A DNA stretch of 64,000 bases from an uncultured Victivallales bacterium (GTDB lineage Bacteria; Verrucomicrobiota; Kiritimatiellia; UBA8416). Positions 9,504 through 54,168 of the stretch are shown one piece after another. Both the position numbers and the translations under genes were made by a program. How positions within the stretch are numbered: the stretch's first letter is position 1; every line of letters begins with the position of its first letter. Under the pieces are notes generated by a model that saw only the letters and a list, made by a program, of their open reading frames with translations, did not search any database and was not told the DNA's origin. Location: the NCBI GenBank assembly GCA_964472315.1, contig CAYYJS010000007.1:14299-78298 (forward strand), in the 5' to 3' direction.

Positions 9504-9643
9504 GACGGGAACATCATACGGTGGGGGCGCGCCGGTCGGAAGCAGAAAACGCGGGAAGTGGATTGGCGGCGTTGCAGAGGGCACTGAGGGCTTGCGGCCC
9601 GTCGTTGTCTATGGTTCACTGGCACCATAGAGGGGAGAAAGCC

Positions 9644-10264
9644 ATGATGACGAGAGTGGATGGTTGGGTCGGGTCGGCGCTGGGTGTTCTCGTGGTCGCC
9701 GCGATGCTGTCGGGGTGTCAGACGACGCGACAGGTCAGTCGGGTTGGCGTCGACGAGGTGATTGACTTGAGCGGGCGGTGGAATGACACCGATTCGCGTC
9801 TGGTCGCCGAGGAGATGATCAGCCAGTTGTCGCAGGCGGGGTTTGTCGGCGAGTTTCGCGATACGAAGGGGCGGAAGCCGGTGATGATGGTGGGCATGGT
9901 GCGCAACGAGTCGGACGAGCACATTGCCCTGGACACGTTCATCAAGGATATCGAACGGGCGCTGGTCAACTCCGGACGCATCCGAGTGGTTGCCGACAGC
10001 GGGGAACGCGCCGAACTGCGCAACGAGCGCCACGACCAGCAATCGTTCGCCTCCGAAGAGTCCGCCAAGCGTCTGGCCGCGGAAACCGGCGCCGATTTCA
10101 TGCTCAAGGGAGCGCTGAAGACGCAGGTGGATGCGATTCAGGGACAGCAGGTCAAGTTCTACCAGATCGATCTGGAGCTGATGGACGTCGAGAACAACGA
10201 AAAGGCGTGGATCGGTTCGAAGAAGATCAAGAAGCAGGTCAAGCAGCGGCGCGTGACCTGGTAG
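9644..10264 (+). CDS. Lipoprotein of the COG3417 family (LpoB/FlgO-like)
   Basis: RBS AGGGGAG, signal peptide with lipobox LSGC; overall similarity in layout to LpoB (VDSVNNRT.../...YVL.G.L.....Q..L.Q..E..W). Confidence 0.6.
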   Translation: MMTRVDGWVGSALGVLVVAAMLSGCQTTRQVSRVGVDEVIDLSGRWNDTDSRLVAEEMISQLSQAGFVGEFRDTKGRKPVMMVGMVRNESDEHIALDTFIKDIERALVNSGRIRVVADSGERAELRNERHDQQSFASEESAKRLAAETGADFMLKGALKTQVDAIQGQQVKFYQIDLELMDVENNEKAWIGSKKIKKQVKQRRVTW

Positions 10265-10298
10265 TGCGCGGCGTCGCCACACACGAGGCGGGGGTCTG

Positions 10299-11696
10299 GT
10301 GCGAAGTCTTCTCATAGCGGCATTTGCGGCATGCCTGGGCTCGCTGACCGGTGGTTGCGCCTGTCTGCTCACGTATGACACGCATTACCCGCTGGCGGAG
10401 CAGAATCTGGCGCAGGGCGGCTACGAGGCGGCCGCGGCGCAGATCCGTCAGAACAAGGAACTCTACACCGCCAAGAACGCGGTCCTGTACTACCTCGATG
10501 CGGGGATGCTCGAGCACTATGCCGGAAACTTCGACGCCAGCAACGTGATGCTGACCGAAGCCGAGCGCGGCATCGAGGACGGCTATACCAAGAGCGCGAG
10601 TCGCGGGGCGGCGGGATTGCTGCTGAACGACAACACGTTCGCCTACGCGGGCGAAGACTACGAGAACGCGTACGTCAATGTCTTCAAGGCCCTGAACTAC
10701 CTTGGCAAGGGCGAGCCCGAGAGCGCTTTCGTGGAAGTCCGCCGGGTCAACAACAAGTTGTCCATGCTGGGGGACCGGTACGCGGCGCAGACGCAGGCTT
10801 TCAATGCGGAGATGAAGGAGTACGGGCAGGCGCGGCGGACGCCCCGGAACTACTTCCAGGAATGCGCGCTGGGGCGGTTTCTCAGTCTGGTGCTGTACCG
10901 GCACGATGGCAAGCTGGACGATGCCCGCATCGATCTCGACCATTTGCGTCGGGCATGGAAGGTGCAGCCCGGAATGTACGATTTCGCCGAACCGCGGTTG
11001 CCCGGCTGTCTGTCGCCGTTAACCGCGGATCAGGCCCGGCTCACCGTCGTCAGTTTTACGGGGCGCGCGCCGATCAAGGAAGCCGAGACGCTGCATGCGT
11101 TCTCGCTCACGAACCAGGTCGTCATCAGCATCCAACCGCCGGAGAGCATGACGGCGGACCGGGCGGCGGTCGTGTTGCCGTGGAAGGATATGAAGCCCGG
11201 GTACCATTTCAAGTGCACGATCCCGAGGCTCATCGCGCGCGGCTCGGCCGTGACGCATGTCCGTGTGATTGTCGACGACAAGCTGGCGTTCTCGCTCGAG
11301 TGCATCGAGTCGCTGGAGAACGCCGCCCGGGAAACGTTCCGTATCCGGCAACCGATGATCCTGTTGCGGACCGGCATCCGTGTGCTCATGAAGGGGGTGG
11401 CGGTGCATCAGGCGCGACAGGAGATCAAGAAGGAGGCGAAGGACGACGCAATGGGTGACTTCCTCGCTTTTCTGGCGATGGAGGCGGTCATGGCGACCGA
11501 AATCGCCGATTGCCGGATTTCGCGCTTTTTCCCGGCACGGGCCTACGTGGGCGAGGTCGACGTGACGCCGGGGACGCACGCCGTCCGCGTGGAGTATCTG
11601 GGCGCGGACAAGCAGGTGTTGTACACGCATGATCTGGGTGCCGTGGAAGCGCGCGGTGGAAGCCTGAATGTCAAGGAGTCGGTATGTATACAATGA
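10299..11696 (+). CDS. Large lipoprotein, unknown function (middle gene of the three-lipoprotein cluster)
   Basis: Signal peptide with lipobox LTGGC; 465 aa; no recognised catalytic motifs. Confidence 0.55.
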   Translation: MRSLLIAAFAACLGSLTGGCACLLTYDTHYPLAEQNLAQGGYEAAAAQIRQNKELYTAKNAVLYYLDAGMLEHYAGNFDASNVMLTEAERGIEDGYTKSASRGAAGLLLNDNTFAYAGEDYENAYVNVFKALNYLGKGEPESAFVEVRRVNNKLSMLGDRYAAQTQAFNAEMKEYGQARRTPRNYFQECALGRFLSLVLYRHDGKLDDARIDLDHLRRAWKVQPGMYDFAEPRLPGCLSPLTADQARLTVVSFTGRAPIKEAETLHAFSLTNQVVISIQPPESMTADRAAVVLPWKDMKPGYHFKCTIPRLIARGSAVTHVRVIVDDKLAFSLECIESLENAARETFRIRQPMILLRTGIRVLMKGVAVHQARQEIKKEAKDDAMGDFLAFLAMEAVMATEIADCRISRFFPARAYVGEVDVTPGTHAVRVEYLGADKQVLYTHDLGAVEARGGSLNVKESVCIQ

Positions 11697-12757
11697 TGAA
11701 GGTGGCGGGGAAGTTCGCGGGTTCGGCGGCCTGTCTGCTGGTTGCCGTCTCGTGCGCGACGAATGCGGGCGTCGGCACGCCTCAGGCGGCGTCGGCGCAA
11801 ACGAAAGGCGTGCCCGAATGGGTGACGAATCCCGGCCGCCGCTATCCGGCGGCGCACTATCTCGTGGCCGTGGGTTCCGGGGATTCCCGGCGCGCGGCCG
11901 AGGACAACGCGGTGGCGGGATTGGCGCGGATCTTCGAATCGAAGATCGACTCCGAGGAAACGCTGGTGGAGCACTATCGGGAGCTGATGGGCGCGCGCGG
12001 GAACACGTTCGAGGCGACGTCCGACATGGACCGGCGCGTGCGCATCCGGGCCAATCAGGAATTGCTTAATGTGCAGTTCGGCGAGAGTGGCGTCGATGGA
12101 GCGGGGCGGACGTATGCGATCGCCTACATGGAGCGGGGCGTGACCGCGGGCATCTACGCGAAGCGCATCGAGGAGAATGCGGCGGTTGTCGCGCGCTTCG
12201 TGACGCGGGCCGGCGAGGTGACGGATGCGGCGCGGCGCTATGCCTTCCGGAACGCCGCGTGGATCGTGGCCAAGGCGAACCAGGATTACATCCGGCAGAT
12301 GGACATCATTGTGCCCGGCTCGTCGTCCCGGCAGAGCCCGGGGTATACGGTGGACGGGTTGCGGATGGCCGCGTTGGAGGCGGCGCGCGACCTGCGGGTG
12401 ACGATCGGCGTCGAGGGCGACGAAGGCGGTGTGGTGACCGAGACGATCGCCAAGGCGGTCACCGGGCTTGGTTTTGCCGTGGTCGAGGCGGATGCGACGA
12501 TGGACGTGAAGGCGACGTTGCGCATCGAGCCCACGGATCTCAAGCGCGCGGATGCCGAGTTCGTGCGCTACGAATACGGCATCCGGATCATGCAGGGCGG
12601 GGTCACGCTTCTGGGGACGAGCGGCAACGGACGCGAAGGGCATGTGTCGCTGTCCGCGGCGCGCAAGCGGGCCCTGGTCCGCGCCTGCGGGGAGATCGAG
12701 AATCACCTCAGCGCCGGACTTCGGCGTTACTTCGACCGGTTGGTCAAGGACGCCTGA
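11684..12757 (+). CDS. LPP20-family lipoprotein (FlgP-like)
   Basis: Lipobox VAVSC; LPP20-type segment YLVAVGSGDSRRAAEDNAVAGLARI; overlaps the preceding gene by 13 nt. Confidence 0.65.
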   Translation: MYTMMKVAGKFAGSAACLLVAVSCATNAGVGTPQAASAQTKGVPEWVTNPGRRYPAAHYLVAVGSGDSRRAAEDNAVAGLARIFESKIDSEETLVEHYRELMGARGNTFEATSDMDRRVRIRANQELLNVQFGESGVDGAGRTYAIAYMERGVTAGIYAKRIEENAAVVARFVTRAGEVTDAARRYAFRNAAWIVAKANQDYIRQMDIIVPGSSSRQSPGYTVDGLRMAALEAARDLRVTIGVEGDEGGVVTETIAKAVTGLGFAVVEADATMDVKATLRIEPTDLKRADAEFVRYEYGIRIMQGGVTLLGTSGNGREGHVSLSAARKRALVRACGEIENHLSAGLRRYFDRLVKDA

Positions 12758-12790
12758 CGCGGCGCGTGCTCCGTGGCGGGCACGCGGCGG

Positions 12791-13459
12791 CTATCGCGTG
12801 GCGAGTTCCTCTTCGGTGTCGGCGTGGTCGGTCCGTACCGAGGCGTGGATGTGGGCACCGCCGCGGGCGGGCGACTCGTGGTAGACCCAGTCGAATCCCG
12901 CGGCCCAGCACAGCTTGGCGAGTTCCTCCAGGCCCAACTCGTCGCAGGTGACATCGATGGCTCGTCCCTCCTTGTGCAGGGACCGCGAGTTGTGGATCTT
13001 GGTTGGACGATACGCATCGTGAACTTCGAGCGTGCCGTTCCGTGTGGCGACGAGCGCGATCAGGCGCCGCAGGGGGAGATCCAGGGCGCGGTGCACCGAA
13101 TGGTCGCATTCGTCGTCGCCGGTATCGTGGTCGCTTTCCCACCAGACGCGCGAATCGTCGACATACACGAGGTCGCGACCGGGCGAGAACCGTTCGGGGT
13201 CGACGCTGCCCGAGACATCCATCTCGCGGCGTGTGGGGAGGTGCGTGTTGCGCGGAAACGCGGCGGGTATGTCGCGTACGGCCGTCAGCGGTTGTGTCGC
13301 CGTCGGGGGCGATACCGACTCCACGGGCGCGATGTCCTGTGCCCGCGAGTGCCGGCGTTCCACCCGATGCAGCAGCATGCCGACGACCGTCGCGCACAGC
13401 AGAATCCCGCCGGCGATCGCCATGACCGCGAGCCTGCCCATGGTCGTGAGTCCACGCAT
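12791..13459 (-). CDS. Membrane-anchored zinc hydrolase with Hedgehog N-terminal ('Hedge')/LAS-peptidase-like domain
   Basis: N-terminal TM (LAVMAIAGGILLCATVVGMLL). C-terminal SLHKEGRAIDVTCDE...AAGFDWVYHESPARGGAHIHASV aligns with Shh-N SLHYEGRAVDITTSD...EAGFDWVYYESKAHIHCSV, including the His/Asp/His zinc ligands. Confidence 0.6.
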   Translation of the reverse strand: MRGLTTMGRLAVMAIAGGILLCATVVGMLLHRVERRHSRAQDIAPVESVSPPTATQPLTAVRDIPAAFPRNTHLPTRREMDVSGSVDPERFSPGRDLVYVDDSRVWWESDHDTGDDECDHSVHRALDLPLRRLIALVATRNGTLEVHDAYRPTKIHNSRSLHKEGRAIDVTCDELGLEELAKLCWAAGFDWVYHESPARGGAHIHASVRTDHADTEEELATR

Positions 13460-13722
13460 TATCGGTGCCGCCTCCGTGGGAACGGGTTCTCGGAATCCCC
13501 GACGCGGGGAACGATGCGCCCGTACTGAAACGCGGACATGATAGGGGACCCGCGCGCCGCTGTCAAACGGCCGGCACGGGCGCGGCCAATCTCCCGTCCC
13601 CGCGACGCGAGGTCGCGGGGGACGGCTCCAGAATGCGAATTGCCGCCACGGGCGGCAAAAGCCTTGTCAAGGCTTCGAATGTGTGTTACCCACCACAGCC
13701 TGTCAGGAGCCTGGATCGAACC

Positions 13723-14835
13723 ATGGACGAACGAACGGCATATATCGCGCTTAATATGATGGAGGACATCGGTCCCGTCGGCGTGCGCGCCCTGGTCGCG
13801 AAACTCGGCTCCGCCGCCGCGATTTTCGAGGCCGCGCCGGCCGACCTGCGGGCCGCGGACGGCATCGGACCGAAGACGGTGGAGGCGATCGTGCGGCAGC
13901 GCGGCGCTATCCGTGTCGACGAGGAGCTGGCGCTGGCGGAAAAGCTGGGTTGCCGGCTCGTGGCGCAGATCGATCCGGAATACCCGGCGGCGCTGGGTGC
14001 GATCCACGATCCGCCGCTCGCGCTCTACGTGCGGGGTGAACTGCGGAACCGGGACCGGCACGCCATCGCCGTGGTCGGAACGCGCCGTGCGACGCAATAC
14101 GGCATCGATTGCGCGCGCAAGCTTTCGTATCAGTTGGCGCAGGCCGGGTTCACAATCCTGAGCGGGCTGGCGCGGGGCATCGATACCGCGGCGCATGAAG
14201 GTGCGATCCAGGGCGGCGGGCGTACGGTGGCGGTCATCGGCGCGGGACTTGCGGAGGTCTACCCGCCCGAGAACCGGCCGTTGGCCGACCGGATCTCCGA
14301 ACACGGGGCCGTCGTGAGCGAATTTCCGATGCGACGGCAACCGGACAAGACCACGTTTCCGATGCGCAACCGGATCGTCAGCGGCTTGTCGCGGGGGGTC
14401 CTGGTGGTCGAGGCGGGGCGCCGGAGCGGCGCCTCGATCACCGTCGAACAGGCTCTCCAGCAGGGACGCGACGTATTTGCCGTGCCGGGACGTATCGATT
14501 CGTATGCCTCGCAGGGCGCCAACGACCTGATCAAGGCGGGCGCTCCGCTGGTGAGTTCCGTGGATGACATTCTGGGCCACTACGAGCTTCTGTTGCCGTC
14601 GCGGCAACCGGCCGGCGGCGATGCGGCGGGGGCGGGTGCCGCGCGGCCCCGGCCCGAATTGTCGGAAGGCGAGTCCGCTCTCGTCGCGCTGATCGGGCGC
14701 GGCGTGAGCGATGTCGACGGGTTGATCCGCGAGTCCGGCCTGGGTCCGGCCGCGGTGGGCGCCCTGCTTGTGGCGCTGGAGTTGAAGCGTGTGACCCGTG
14801 CCCTGCCGGGGCGGCAGGTCGCGCTGGTTGGATGA
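13723..14835 (+). CDS. dprA: DNA processing protein DprA (Smf)
   Basis: LSGLARGIDTAAHEGAL...GTVAVIGAGL...NRIVSGLS Rossmann core plus C-terminal winged-helix region. Start at MDERTAYIAL (13723). Confidence 0.85.
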   Translation: MDERTAYIALNMMEDIGPVGVRALVAKLGSAAAIFEAAPADLRAADGIGPKTVEAIVRQRGAIRVDEELALAEKLGCRLVAQIDPEYPAALGAIHDPPLALYVRGELRNRDRHAIAVVGTRRATQYGIDCARKLSYQLAQAGFTILSGLARGIDTAAHEGAIQGGGRTVAVIGAGLAEVYPPENRPLADRISEHGAVVSEFPMRRQPDKTTFPMRNRIVSGLSRGVLVVEAGRRSGASITVEQALQQGRDVFAVPGRIDSYASQGANDLIKAGAPLVSSVDDILGHYELLLPSRQPAGGDAAGAGAARPRPELSEGESALVALIGRGVSDVDGLIRESGLGPAAVGALLVALELKRVTRALPGRQVALVG

Positions 14836-14866
14836 CGTGTTTCCATCGGTAGGGAGTGCTAGAGAT

Positions 14867-17416
14867 ATGGGCAAGAAACTGGTTATCGTGGAATCGCCGG
14901 CCAAGGCGAAGACCATCAACAAGATCCTGGGGCATGACTACATCGTCAAGTCGTCGATGGGGCATGTGCGCGACCTGCCGGAGAAACGTCTCGGCGTCGA
15001 TATCGAACACGGGTTCGCACCGTCCTACGTGCTGGTCGAAGGCCGCAAGAAGGTGATCGGCGAATTGCGCGCCGCGGCCAGGGAATGCGACGAGATCTTT
15101 CTCGCGCCTGACCCGGACCGGGAAGGGGAGGCGATCGCCTGGCACCTGAAGGCCGTGTTGGAACCGGAGGCCGGCGACAAGCCGTTCTATCGGATTCAGT
15201 ACAACGAGATCACGCCGCGCGCCGTGCGCGCGGCCTTCGACGCGCCGGGGGTCATCGATACGCGGCGTGTGGATGCCCAGCAGGCGCGCCGCGTGCTGGA
15301 CCGCATCGTCGGGTACAAGGTCAGTCCGCTGTTGTGGCGGCATGTGCGCCGGGGGCTCAGCGCCGGACGCGTGCAATCGGTGGCGCTGCGGCTCGTGTGC
15401 GAACGCGAAGCCGCCATCCGCGAGTTCAAGCCCGAAGCCTACTGGCTCCTTGGCGCGCTCGTCCGCAAGCTGGTGGTGCCGTTGAGCCCGTTCCGGATCC
15501 GTCTGGTGCGCATGGACGGCGCGAAGATCGAGGTCAAGGCCGCCGACGAAGCCCGGCGCATCGAGACCGAACTGCAGGGCCGCCCGCTGGTCGTCGGGCA
15601 GGTGACCACGCGCGACGTGAAGCGCAACCCGTATCCGCCGTTCATCACCAGCACGCTGCAGCAGGCGGCGTCGACGGTGTGCGGTTTCTCGCCGCGCCGG
15701 ACGATGCAGATCGCGCAGAGCCTGTACGAAGGCGTCAACCTCGGCGGCGGCCCCGAGGGTCTGATCACCTACATGCGAACCGATTCGTTTACCGTGGCGC
15801 GCGACGCGCAGGAAGCCTGCCGCGGGTTCGTCGAGCGCACCTACGGCAAGGAGTACTGCCCCGAGAAGCCCAACGTGTACCGCAGCCGATCCGGGGCGCA
15901 GGAGGCGCATGAAGCGATCCGGCCGACCGATGTGTGCAGGACGCCGGACCAGGTGAAGGCGCACCTCGATCCGGCCGAACATAAGCTCTACAAGCTGATC
16001 TGGGAGCGCTTTGTGGCGTCGCAGATGGTCCCGGCGATCGTCGAGCGCCGCACGGCCGTGATCGAAGCGCGGCCGACGGCCGGCGCGGCGGAGGGTACGC
16101 ACCATTACGAGTTCCAGGCAACGGCGTCGGAGGTCAAGTTCCCGGGATACCGGCTGGTTACACGCGAGGAAGAAAAGGCGCCCGAAGAGGGCGATGAGAT
16201 CGAGGTGCTGCCGGTGCTGACCGAGGGCGAGCCGCTCGTGTGTCTCGAGGTGCTCTCCGAACGCAAGGAGACGCAGCCGCCGGCGCGCTTCTCCGAAGCG
16301 TCGCTGGTGAAGGCGCTGGAAGCCAACGGCGTGGGCCGCCCGAGCACGTATGCGCAGACCCTTTCGACGCTCCAGGCGCGCAGCTATGTCGAGCTCAAGA
16401 ACCGCTCCCTGTGGCCTACGGACCTCGGTATGGAGGCGAACGCGCTGCTGGTCAAGAGCCTGAACGAACTCTTCGACGTGGGGTTCACGGCGTCGATGGA
16501 GGATACGTTGGATAAGGTGGAGAGCGGCGAGGTGGAATGGACGACCATGCTGGCGACGTTCTACGCGCAGTTCTCCACGTGGATGGAGCGGACGAAGGAA
16601 GCGCCGGCGGATACGGCGCACGTACAACGGGTGCTGGCGTTGTTCGCCGGAGTTTCGGCGTGGGCGCCGGAGACCAAGCGCGGGCGGCGCACGTACAGCG
16701 ACGAGCGCTTTGTCGCCTCGATCGTCAAGCAGATCGCGGACGAAAAGCCGGTGACGCCGCGGCAGTTCGAGGCGCTCGCGAAGATCGCGTGCCGCTATCG
16801 CACGCAGGTTGCGGGGATCGAGGATGCGTTGACGGCCTGCGGGATGGAAGCGCTGCTGACGGCGCCGGAACTGGAACCGCCCCTGGCCAGTTCCCTGCGC
16901 AAGCTCGATGTGCTCGACGGCATCGAGCTGGACGAATCGACCCGCAAGTTCATCGACTCGCTGGGTGAGCAGGTGCGGGGGGGGCGCCGGCTCTCGCCGG
17001 CGCAACTCGCGGCGCTCGACAAGACCGTCCTGTCGCGCGGCAAGGAGATCGAGGGTTTCGACGGGCTGCGCGAGGAACTGGGCCTTGGCGGTCAGTCGTT
17101 GCCCGAGGACAACGAAAGCGCCCCGCTGCTGGCGCTGATGGCGCACGTCCGGGAATGGCAGCCGCCCGTCAAACGCGGCAAGCGCGAATTCGACGACAGT
17201 GCGTTCCTGGAGTCCTTGAGCCGGCAGTACGAGTCCAAGCGCTACCTGTCCGACCGACAGCGGGCGGCGCTGAAACGCATGCTGGTGCGCTACCGGGCGC
17301 AGATTCCCGACTTCGATACGGCGGCTTCGACCTACGACCTGAAGGCGGCGCCGAAGCGGGTCGGCGGTCGGCGTGGCGGTCGCGGGGGCAAATCCGCGGC
17401 GTCGTCCGAGGAATAG
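14867..17416 (+). CDS. topA: DNA topoisomerase I with non-canonical C-terminal tandem-repeat domain
   Basis: RBS AGGGAG; MGKKLVIVESPAKAKTI...EGE...DPDREGEAIAWH Toprim; catalytic-Tyr region YMRTDS. The C-terminal 270 aa lack Cys4 zinc ribbons and instead hold two ~48-aa repeats and an RGG tail. Confidence 0.9.
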   Translation: MGKKLVIVESPAKAKTINKILGHDYIVKSSMGHVRDLPEKRLGVDIEHGFAPSYVLVEGRKKVIGELRAAARECDEIFLAPDPDREGEAIAWHLKAVLEPEAGDKPFYRIQYNEITPRAVRAAFDAPGVIDTRRVDAQQARRVLDRIVGYKVSPLLWRHVRRGLSAGRVQSVALRLVCEREAAIREFKPEAYWLLGALVRKLVVPLSPFRIRLVRMDGAKIEVKAADEARRIETELQGRPLVVGQVTTRDVKRNPYPPFITSTLQQAASTVCGFSPRRTMQIAQSLYEGVNLGGGPEGLITYMRTDSFTVARDAQEACRGFVERTYGKEYCPEKPNVYRSRSGAQEAHEAIRPTDVCRTPDQVKAHLDPAEHKLYKLIWERFVASQMVPAIVERRTAVIEARPTAGAAEGTHHYEFQATASEVKFPGYRLVTREEEKAPEEGDEIEVLPVLTEGEPLVCLEVLSERKETQPPARFSEASLVKALEANGVGRPSTYAQTLSTLQARSYVELKNRSLWPTDLGMEANALLVKSLNELFDVGFTASMEDTLDKVESGEVEWTTMLATFYAQFSTWMERTKEAPADTAHVQRVLALFAGVSAWAPETKRGRRTYSDERFVASIVKQIADEKPVTPRQFEALAKIACRYRTQVAGIEDALTACGMEALLTAPELEPPLASSLRKLDVLDGIELDESTRKFIDSLGEQVRGGRRLSPAQLAALDKTVLSRGKEIEGFDGLREELGLGGQSLPEDNESAPLLALMAHVREWQPPVKRGKREFDDSAFLESLSRQYESKRYLSDRQRAALKRMLVRYRAQIPDFDTAASTYDLKAAPKRVGGRRGGRGGKSAASSEE

Positions 17417-54076: not shown

Positions 54077-54168
54077 GGAGGGTTGGCAGAGCCCGGTTGA
54101 ATGCGCATGACTCGAAATCATGTGTGGCCGTAAGGCCACCGGGGGTTCAAATCCCTCACCCTCCGCCA
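54077..54168 (+). tRNA. tRNA-Ser (anticodon CGA), 92 nt with long variable arm
   Basis: Folds by eye: acceptor GGAGGGT/ACCCTCC, D-stem GCA/TGC, anticodon stem CATGA/TCATG with loop CTCGAAA, variable arm GTGGCC-GTAA-GGCCAC, T-arm GGGGG-TTCAAAT-CCCTC, discriminator G, encoded CCA. Confidence 0.85.

Follow-up and report, generated by a model that had tools for sequence, protein, structure and literature searches.

Does a gene of an uncultured Victivallales bacterium encode a protein with the fold and zinc site of the animal Hedgehog N-terminal domain, and what would such a protein do in a bacterial envelope? The gene lies on the minus strand, at 12791..13459, of a 64,000-nucleotide stretch of contig CAYYJS010000007.1 (assembly GCA_964472315.1; the whole stretch is called the window below). 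It is a complete coding sequence of 222 amino acids, taken from the list of open reading frames (ORFs) and annotated here, through its match to Pfam HH_signal, as a predicted Hedgehog-N-like, membrane-tethered zinc peptidase. An original prediction, made from the letters alone, had proposed a Hedgehog-N-type zinc-hydrolase domain of the lysostaphin/D-Ala-D-Ala carboxypeptidase/Shh (LAS) superfamily. Both strings that it quoted, SLHKEGRAIDVTCDE and AAGFDWVYHESPARGGAHIHASV, are present in the 222-residue translation of this ORF.

The Hedgehog-type domain and its predicted zinc site

The Pfam family HH_signal (PF01085) matches residues 96–207 of the protein over profile positions 52–161 of 161, with an E value of 9.4e-11 and a score of 42.1 bits, well above the gathering cut-off of 22.1, so that the first check proposed with the original prediction gave a significant match. 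It is the only Pfam family reported for this protein even at E ≤ 10, and NCBIfam contains no meaningful match to it. A phmmer search of the PDB returns the N domains of Ihh, Shh, and Dhh only, at E values of 4e-10 and weaker, and a profile built from 48 family members reaches Shh at an E value of 1.6e-19. In global mode, hhalign pairs 154 columns with mouse ShhN, at 31% identity and with a probability of 99.4%. The resemblance to Hedgehog is far beyond chance.

The structure predicted by AlphaFold2 from the family alignment has a mean predicted local distance difference test score (pLDDT) of 90.3 and superposes on ShhN, as the original prediction would have it. Its best 38 Foldseek matches in the PDB are all N domains of Shh, Ihh, Dhh, or fly Hh (E values of 1e-10 to 3e-7), aligned over ∼155 columns with target-normalized template-modeling (TM) scores of 0.74–0.83 and, in 32 of the 38, a root-mean-square deviation of 2.2–3.9 Å. 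The next matches after Hedgehog are MepA, LdcB, Ply500, VanXYc, and VanY, with E values of 0.02–0.3, TM scores of 0.3–0.46, and 12%–20% identity. The similarity had been placed in the C-terminal ∼110 residues; it is real, but this limit is wrong. Because both Foldseek and hhalign align ∼155 columns, the homology covers the whole Hedgehog N domain of ∼150 amino acids, which here corresponds to residues ∼61–210 (12830..13279, minus strand; LAS/M15-like) and includes the conserved N-terminal landmarks F68, P75, E79, and G84, equivalent to Shh F48, P50, E54, and G61. Forty columns are invariant over the 48 homologs of this alignment (A1). By sequence and modeled structure, the protein is a member of Pfam HH_signal, with the Hedgehog N-domain fold, and of the LAS superfamily.

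Residue-level alignments to Ihh and Shh resolve the putative active site into two motifs: H156-x5-H162-x6-D169 (IHNSRSLHKEGRAID; 12953..12994, minus strand) and E195-x7-H203-x-H205 (ESPARGGAHIH; 12845..12877, minus strand), the latter containing a four-residue family-specific insertion, the PARG region, ahead of H-x-H. Shh residues are given in what we take to be the mouse numbering. It agrees with the residues named in two published studies (PMC6027127, PMC8052667) and with the printed alignments. The first zinc ligand, Shh H141, corresponds to H162 in SLHKEG, and the other two ligands, D148 and H183, correspond to D169 in RAIDV and to H205, the second histidine in HIH. E195 is equivalent to the general base E177, and H156 and H203 are equivalent to the stacking, or transition-state, histidines H135 and H181. 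Of the three motifs that had been proposed to carry zinc ligands, RAIDV and HIHASV do so, but the histidine of IHNS is H156, a stacking histidine. The H-x6-D and H-x-H motifs and the catalytic Glu are intact, and none of the six residues varies among the 195 non-identical family sequences, an invariance that points to zinc-dependent peptidase chemistry.

Two divergent sister proteins, P0157 and P0160, depart from this pattern. The zinc-ligand Asp is replaced by Ala in both, the catalytic Glu is lost as well in P0160, and neither retains the WWESD acidic cluster described below. Both are likely to be pseudo-enzymes that keep the anchor and the fold. Since they show the pattern of relaxed constraint, the main family appears to be under selection as an enzyme.

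The family alignment also reveals a family-specific acidic loop (DDSRVWWESDHDTGDDECDH, residues 101–120; 13100..13159, minus strand) at the position of the Ca2+-binding loop of Shh (E90–D96). Over the 195 family sequences this loop is a near-invariant WWESDxDxxDxECDH, with conservation of D102 in 193 sequences, E108 in 192, D110 in 185 (and Glu in a further 9), D112 in 189, D115 in 192, E117 in 194, D119 in 193, and H120 in 194. Shh D96 is matched by D119 in all three alignment methods, and Shh E127 by D148, which is acidic (Asp or Glu) in 194 of the 195. Shh D130, however, is replaced by R151, an Arg in every sequence, and Shh D132 by T153, which is variable across the family; the equivalents of E90 and E91 vary with the aligner's placement of a 3–11 residue insertion. 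The family therefore does not retain the two-Ca2+ site, in which E90, E91, D96, E127, D130, and D132 of Shh are all kept. We infer that a cation or regulatory site has been rebuilt here from the loop and R151, the Arg standing in for one metal. In such a site, D102, E108, D110, D112, D115, E117, and D119, together with D148 and R151, would be the remodeled counterpart of the two-calcium regulatory site of Hedgehog, and it would probably bind at most one cation, the Arg replacing the other.

A separate family among Hedgehog-domain proteins

A word-indexed search returned 442 homologs. The best 120, which were listed, are all PF01085-positive, are ∼180–280 amino acids long, and are called "hypothetical protein" wherever the source gives a name. 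A typical family member is a stand-alone protein of ∼200–250 residues, and no extra Pfam domains were found in the longer members. When one genome per GTDB species was scanned, at least 117 carried the gene. For the best 80 of these 117, assigned by record title, the carriers comprise 33 Kiritimatiellia, 29 Lentisphaerae/Victivallales, 12 "Verrucomicrobiota," 1 Phycisphaerae, and 5 unclassified or "PVC group" (Planctomycetes-Verrucomicrobia-Chlamydiae) genomes, all of them metagenome-assembled genomes (MAGs) or single-cell genomes.

A profile hidden Markov model (HMM) of the family, run exhaustively over 1.84 billion representative proteins, gives 609 matches at E ≤ 1e-3, 369 at E ≤ 1e-10, and 41 at E ≤ 1e-30, after which the score drops from 145 to 118 bits. 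The 41 matches above this gap make up the family to which our protein belongs, with the animal Hedgehogs and the classic bacterial Hedgehog-type proteins (BacHh) below it. The description of such proteins as uncommon is correct at the scale of all 1.84 billion sequences, but within the Kiritimatiellia and Lentisphaeria they are common, being encoded in at least 117 species genomes and represented by 442 proteins.

BacHh, or Hh-DD-peptidases, were described by Roelink (2018; PMC6027127) and by Jagers and Roelink (2021; PMC8052667), with WP_065756078.1 of Bradyrhizobium paxllaeri as one example. They have over 50% identity to ShhN and retain all of its zinc and calcium ligands (Roelink, PMC6027127). 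Our comparison set includes P0166, P0168, P0186, P0202, P0244, and P0250 as BacHh. In the 1127-residue P0163, two HH_signal domains are combined with Amidase_2, Glucosaminidase, PG_binding_1, and DUF2272/CHAP domains; P0244, P0204, P0195, P0190, and P0188 are classic BacHh fusions of HH_signal with Phage_lysozyme, Pesticin, YkuD_2, or PG_binding_1; and P0202 (1151 residues) carries HH_signal at its extreme C terminus, in the manner of a polymorphic-toxin tip. Both BacHh and the present family are bacterial and HH_signal-positive, have an intact zinc apparatus, and are predicted to be extracytoplasmic, M15A-like peptidoglycan peptidases. BacHh, however, keep all of the calcium ligands (IVFKDEEGTGAD...TEAWDEDxEH), which the present family does not. 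They are also accessory, and are usually either the C-terminal module of a larger protein or encoded in hydrolase operons (PMC8052667), whereas members of our family stand alone with a predicted transmembrane or lipid anchor, have housekeeping neighbors, and occur almost only in Kiritimatiellia and Lentisphaeria.

With the animal Hedgehog N domains (ShhN, IhhN, and DhhN, PF01085; PDB 1VHH, 3M1N, and 3K7G), the protein shares the predicted fold over ∼155 residues, the H-x6-D and H-x-H zinc ligands, the catalytic Glu, and the pair of stacking histidines. The family is ∼31% identical to animal Hedgehog, and the differences extend to the architecture of the protein. Animal Hedgehog continues into a C-terminal Hint/Hog autoprocessing domain, whereas our protein ends 17 residues after H205 and contains HH_signal as its only Pfam domain. 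It lacks the N-terminal Cys-Gly-Pro-Gly of palmitoylation and Patched binding, and a predicted N-terminal transmembrane helix takes the place of the lipid adducts that anchor the animal protein. The two-calcium site is altered, with extra acidic loop residues, and a four-residue insertion precedes H-x-H. The protein thus fails the defining features both of animal Hedgehog ligands and of the published BacHh subgroup.

The LAS enzymes of MEROPS families M15 and M74 with which we compared the model (MepA, 1U10; LdcB, 4JID, 4OX3, and 4MPH; VanY, 5HNM; VanXYc, 4OAK; and the endolysin Ply500, 2VO9) have in common with it the superfamily core, a central antiparallel sheet with a His/Asp/His zinc site. 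Neither the N-terminal wrap specific to Hedgehog nor the acidic loop is present in them, and their fold scores to our model are marginal. By analogy, they suggest the likely chemistry of the protein and its likely class of substrate, peptidoglycan peptides.

Median domain identity is 65% within the family and 31% between the family and either BacHh or animal Hedgehogs, compared with 51% between BacHh and animal Hedgehogs. Other bacterial proteins are more Hedgehog-like than this one, since published BacHh are ∼51% identical to animal Hedgehogs and its own family only ∼31%. In a neighbor-joining tree, BacHh and animal Hedgehogs cluster together, and a deep branch apart from them holds the family and three divergent relatives. 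Searches of the open-access literature on PF01085 in bacteria, and on Hedgehog with Kiritimatiellae or Lentisphaerae, turned up no account of this family. Judged by its sequences, the family is an undescribed, deep-branching, anchor-plus-domain subfamily of putative Hedgehog-fold zinc peptidases in the PVC clade, with a remodeled cation site.

A further-reaching interpretation, which we regard as tentative and rather doubtful, is that the family represents a third deep lineage of the Hedgehog N domain, a chromosomal, core-like, membrane-tethered cell-wall enzyme of Kiritimatiellia and Lentisphaeria that is older than the split between BacHh and animal Hedgehogs. If so, it would be a natural outgroup, and the two-calcium site would be either a later elaboration or an ancestral cation site that was replaced here by the Arg and the acidic loop; its simple genetics would also make it a system in which to demonstrate the peptidase chemistry of the Hedgehog fold. 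On the protein tree, Kiritimatiellia and Lentisphaeria labels are weakly separated: 39 of 55 nearest neighbors have the same label, a number reached by 6 of 1000 shuffles, and the labels of MAGs are noisy. In view of this weak separation, strict vertical inheritance is not asserted here.

It has long been asked whether Hedgehog proteins use their zinc site for genuine peptidase activity, and bacterial relatives are the main argument that they do (PMC6027127, PMC8052667). The picture of Hedgehog origins is unchanged by our family, because the known BacHh are far closer to the animal proteins. It does add a distinct and abundant bacterial lineage in which the catalytic set appears frozen by selection (195 of 195), the calcium site seems to have been rebuilt, and the architecture, one anchor joined to one domain, could not be simpler. 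Such a protein is a tractable target for finding the bond cut by a Hedgehog-fold enzyme, and the family may serve as an outgroup for the evolution of the Ca/Zn Hedgehog module before its entry into animals. The family is less Hedgehog-like than the published bacterial proteins. It would be useful both for work on Hedgehog-domain evolution and for work on the PVC cell wall, where it flags a conserved but unannotated ("hypothetical protein") candidate cell-wall hydrolase.

Proposed membrane topology and substrate

The N-terminal membrane anchor of the original prediction is borne out. Residues ∼10–30 form a hydrophobic segment (13370..13432, minus strand) that hydropathy and an AlphaFold2 helix spanning residues 6–42 predict to be an uncleaved signal anchor or transmembrane helix. 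Its best 19-residue window has a mean Kyte-Doolittle value of 2.45, close to the family median of 2.47 (148 sequences), and in nearly all of the 148 members analyzed the segment is preceded by basic residues. In our protein it lies between a short basic tail, MRGLTTMGR, and a C-terminal flank, HRVERRHSR. A variable linker follows (residues 31–60; 13280..13369, minus strand), recognized by its low conservation and variable length in A1. This linker is first basic and then Pro/Ala/Thr-rich, and it is where the model is least confident (pLDDT 60–75).

Net charge at the flanks of the anchor is ∼+1.6 on the N-terminal side and ∼+0.5 on the C-terminal side, which is richer in acidic residues, and the higher value on the N-terminal side favors an N-in, C-out orientation. 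In ∼13 of 150 relatives (∼9%), a canonical lipobox terminates the segment (as in ...LLLCAALAGCSRG and ...ISIIVGSCQ). Because these members carry a canonical lipoprotein signal in place of the anchor, the domain would be exported. Taken together, the sequences favor a membrane-tethered domain that faces the periplasm. Conserved disulfides were considered as further evidence of export and rejected, as the cysteines vary among the 195 sequences: position 118 is Cys in 111 and Asp in 82, position 172 is Cys in 170, and position 184 is Cys in 139. The N-terminal tail (13433..13459, minus strand) reads M[RK]xLT[LT]xG[KR] in many members, which is unusual for the n-region of a mere signal anchor, and might serve in recognition or sorting.

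We are moderately confident that the protein is a monocistronic, membrane-tethered, periplasm-facing zinc peptidoglycan peptidase of the Hedgehog-N/LAS (M15-like) fold. In this mechanism, residues ∼10–30 would act as an N-in signal anchor, replaced by a lipoprotein signal in some relatives, and the flexible ∼30-residue linker would position the 150-residue domain in the periplasm near the inner membrane. A Zn2+ ion held by H162, D169, and H205 would activate water jointly with E195, and H156 and H203 would stabilize the tetrahedral intermediate. The bond cleaved would be a peptide bond in the stem peptides or cross-links of peptidoglycan, with the enzyme acting as a carboxy- or endopeptidase of DD-, LD-, or L-Ala-D-Glu specificity.

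Three observations lead us to peptidoglycan as the probable substrate. The only other structural relatives (MepA, LdcB, VanY, VanXYc, and Ply500) are peptidoglycan or D-Ala-D-Ala peptidases. The classic BacHh domains, which have been placed among the M15A peptidoglycan peptidases (PMC6027127, PMC8052667), are fused to modules that act on peptidoglycan (Amidase_2, Glucosaminidase, PG_binding_1, CHAP/DUF2272, Phage_lysozyme, Pesticin, and YkuD_2), and a similar substrate may be expected here by analogy. Finally, some relatives have sub-threshold matches to VanY or Peptidase_M15_4, and our protein itself has a weak match to a PHROG endolysin (E value of 0.005). The periplasmic, peptidoglycan- or peptide-cleaving role suggested in the original prediction is thus still the best account of the protein, and the fusions of related BacHh with amidase, glucosaminidase, lysozyme, YkuD, and PG-binding domains speak for it. 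Other data weigh against this assignment. The Pfam models of M15 and M74 peptidases (Peptidase_M15, M15_2/3/4, VanY, and M74) give no match to the protein even at E ≤ 10. The raw mean of Lys and Arg is higher in the C-terminal flank of the anchor (2.85) than in the N-terminal flank (2.4), so that the positive-inside rule alone is ambiguous. When ORFs within 4 kb of the gene were clustered across 83 related loci, no conserved neighbor tied it to cell-wall genes. Lastly, vertebrate Shh has the same intact site, and its peptidase activity is still debated (PMC6027127).

Some of these data would also fit an active periplasmic zinc peptidase with a target other than peptidoglycan: a protein of the envelope, a lipoprotein, or some peptide-linked glycan peculiar to Kiritimatiellia and Lentisphaeria. 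Besides the missing M15 matches and the missing linkage to cell-wall genes in the 83 loci, the family is more strongly conserved than is usual for cell-wall hydrolases (a median of 65% identity, with 40 invariant columns that take in a conserved N-terminal segment: R62, F68, P75, E79, and F91), as would suit a specific, conserved macromolecular partner. All of the characterized bacterial LAS/M15 enzymes found in the fold search act, however, on peptidoglycan or D-Ala-D-Ala, and the nearest bacterial relatives are fused to peptidoglycan modules, and we consider such a substrate unlikely. The charge distribution around the anchor raises a different alternative, a reversed (N-out, C-in) topology in which a cytoplasmic domain would act, as the D-Ala-D-Ala dipeptidase VanX does, on soluble precursors of the cell wall or on products of its recycling. 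The Arg/Lys/His-rich C-terminal flank (HRVERRHSR, with the Lys/Arg means given above) is consistent with this arrangement, and VanX-type LAS enzymes are cytoplasmic. It is improbable nonetheless, given that the net charge difference favors N-in, that ∼9% of members have a lipoprotein signal peptide, meaning export, and that the acidic loop lies at the position of the extracellular calcium-binding site of Hedgehog. To our knowledge, moreover, the known Hh-type domains are all extracytoplasmic.

Two further alternatives would assign the domain another purpose. As an antibacterial effector or toxin, it would attack the cell walls of competitors, like the C-terminal BacHh domains of large polymorphic or lysozyme-fused proteins; related BacHh domains do occur on multidomain proteins of 400–1150 residues with lysozyme, pesticin, and amidase modules, and the BacHh genes of rhizobia are accessory genes within clusters rich in hydrolases (PMC8052667). 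Members of our family, however, are short and have their own membrane anchor, no fused delivery or lytic domains were found in them, no immunity-like gene is conserved next to them in the 83 loci, and their neighbors are housekeeping genes; together with the lack of close phage relatives in PHROGs and BFVD, this makes an effector very improbable. A non-catalytic binding or signaling module, with the zinc site serving recognition as has been argued for the vertebrate "pseudo-active site," is the least probable of these explanations. Vertebrate ShhN needs no hydrolysis for signaling, and Hhip is among the partners that bind in its zinc cleft (PMC6027127), but in our family the general base and both transition-state histidines are invariant in 195 of 195 sequences, and the relatives that have lost ligands sit on a separate, divergent branch. 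In addition, a published survey knows of no Patched- or Smoothened-type partners in bacteria that carry BacHh (PMC6027127).

Gene, expression signals, and neighborhood

A protein 100% identical to ours is present in public assemblies in two forms: P0001, of 216 residues, from a gene call that begins at Met7, and P0121, the full 222-residue form. We place the start at Met1 (ATG at 13459) rather than Met7, because homologs keep the N-terminal motif M[RK]xLTxxG[KR], because a Shine-Dalgarno-like GGAGG, read from the sequence, lies 11 nt upstream of this ATG (13471..13475, minus strand), and because the 222-residue form exists. A consensus scan finds a candidate sigma-70-like promoter, TTGACA-17-TATCAT (11 of 12 matches; 13538..13566, minus strand), ∼80 nt upstream of the start codon and within the 255-bp divergent spacer common to this gene and dprA. 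One such site was found, with 0.1 expected in shuffles; this is a match to the consensus and no proof of function. The gene is present in one copy within the window, and its GC content is 67%, compared with 65% for the window. A phage origin was considered and rejected, since the weak PHROGs endolysin match mentioned above is the only one and BFVD has nothing below an E value of 4.7e-3.

The gene is convergent (tail-to-tail, with a 33-bp gap) with a gene for an LPP20-like lipoprotein and divergent from dprA-topA. The original prediction had it diverging from the envelope lipoprotein genes and took them as a hint of function, and neither point holds. These genes occupy 9521–12757 (plus strand) and encode an LpoB-domain protein (PF13036, E value of 6e-36), a 465-residue protein that matches no Pfam family, and an LPP20-domain protein (PF02169); a 13-nt overlap between the last two suggests that the trio forms one operon. 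On the other side, 13465–17416 (plus strand) contains dprA (DNA_processg_A and DprA_WH) and topA (Toprim and Topoisom_bac), and this divergent arrangement recurs in 11–13 of the 83 related loci. No neighbor is conserved across these loci, the commonest neighbor family occurring in at most 16 of them, and LpoB and LPP20 do not recur. Because their adjacency is not conserved, the lipoprotein genes give no functional support.

The gap between the convergent genes (12758–12790) contains a perfect 7-bp inverted repeat, with arms CGCGTGC (12763–12769) and GCACGCG (12780–12786) and a 10-nt loop, but without a run of T; this repeat (12763–12786) may be a bidirectional terminator hairpin shared by the two genes. 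The sole Rfam match at the gathering threshold in the window is one tRNA gene (54077–54165, plus strand).

The neighbors of the relatives are housekeeping genes that depend on the lineage (ATP synthase, ScpA/ScpB, ProC, and DprA/TopA), and elsewhere the family gene comes after the ATP synthase epsilon gene, an aldo-keto reductase gene, scpB, proC, or others. Such variation among housekeeping neighbors is consistent with a chromosomal, non-mobile gene, unlike the hydrolase islands that hold the accessory BacHh genes of rhizobia. In one subclade (loci L001–L003 and L008/L009), it immediately follows the F1 ATP synthase genes. Its start overlaps the stop of the epsilon-subunit gene by 4 nt in L001–L003 (8001–8004 in L001), which implies co-transcription with the atp genes there.

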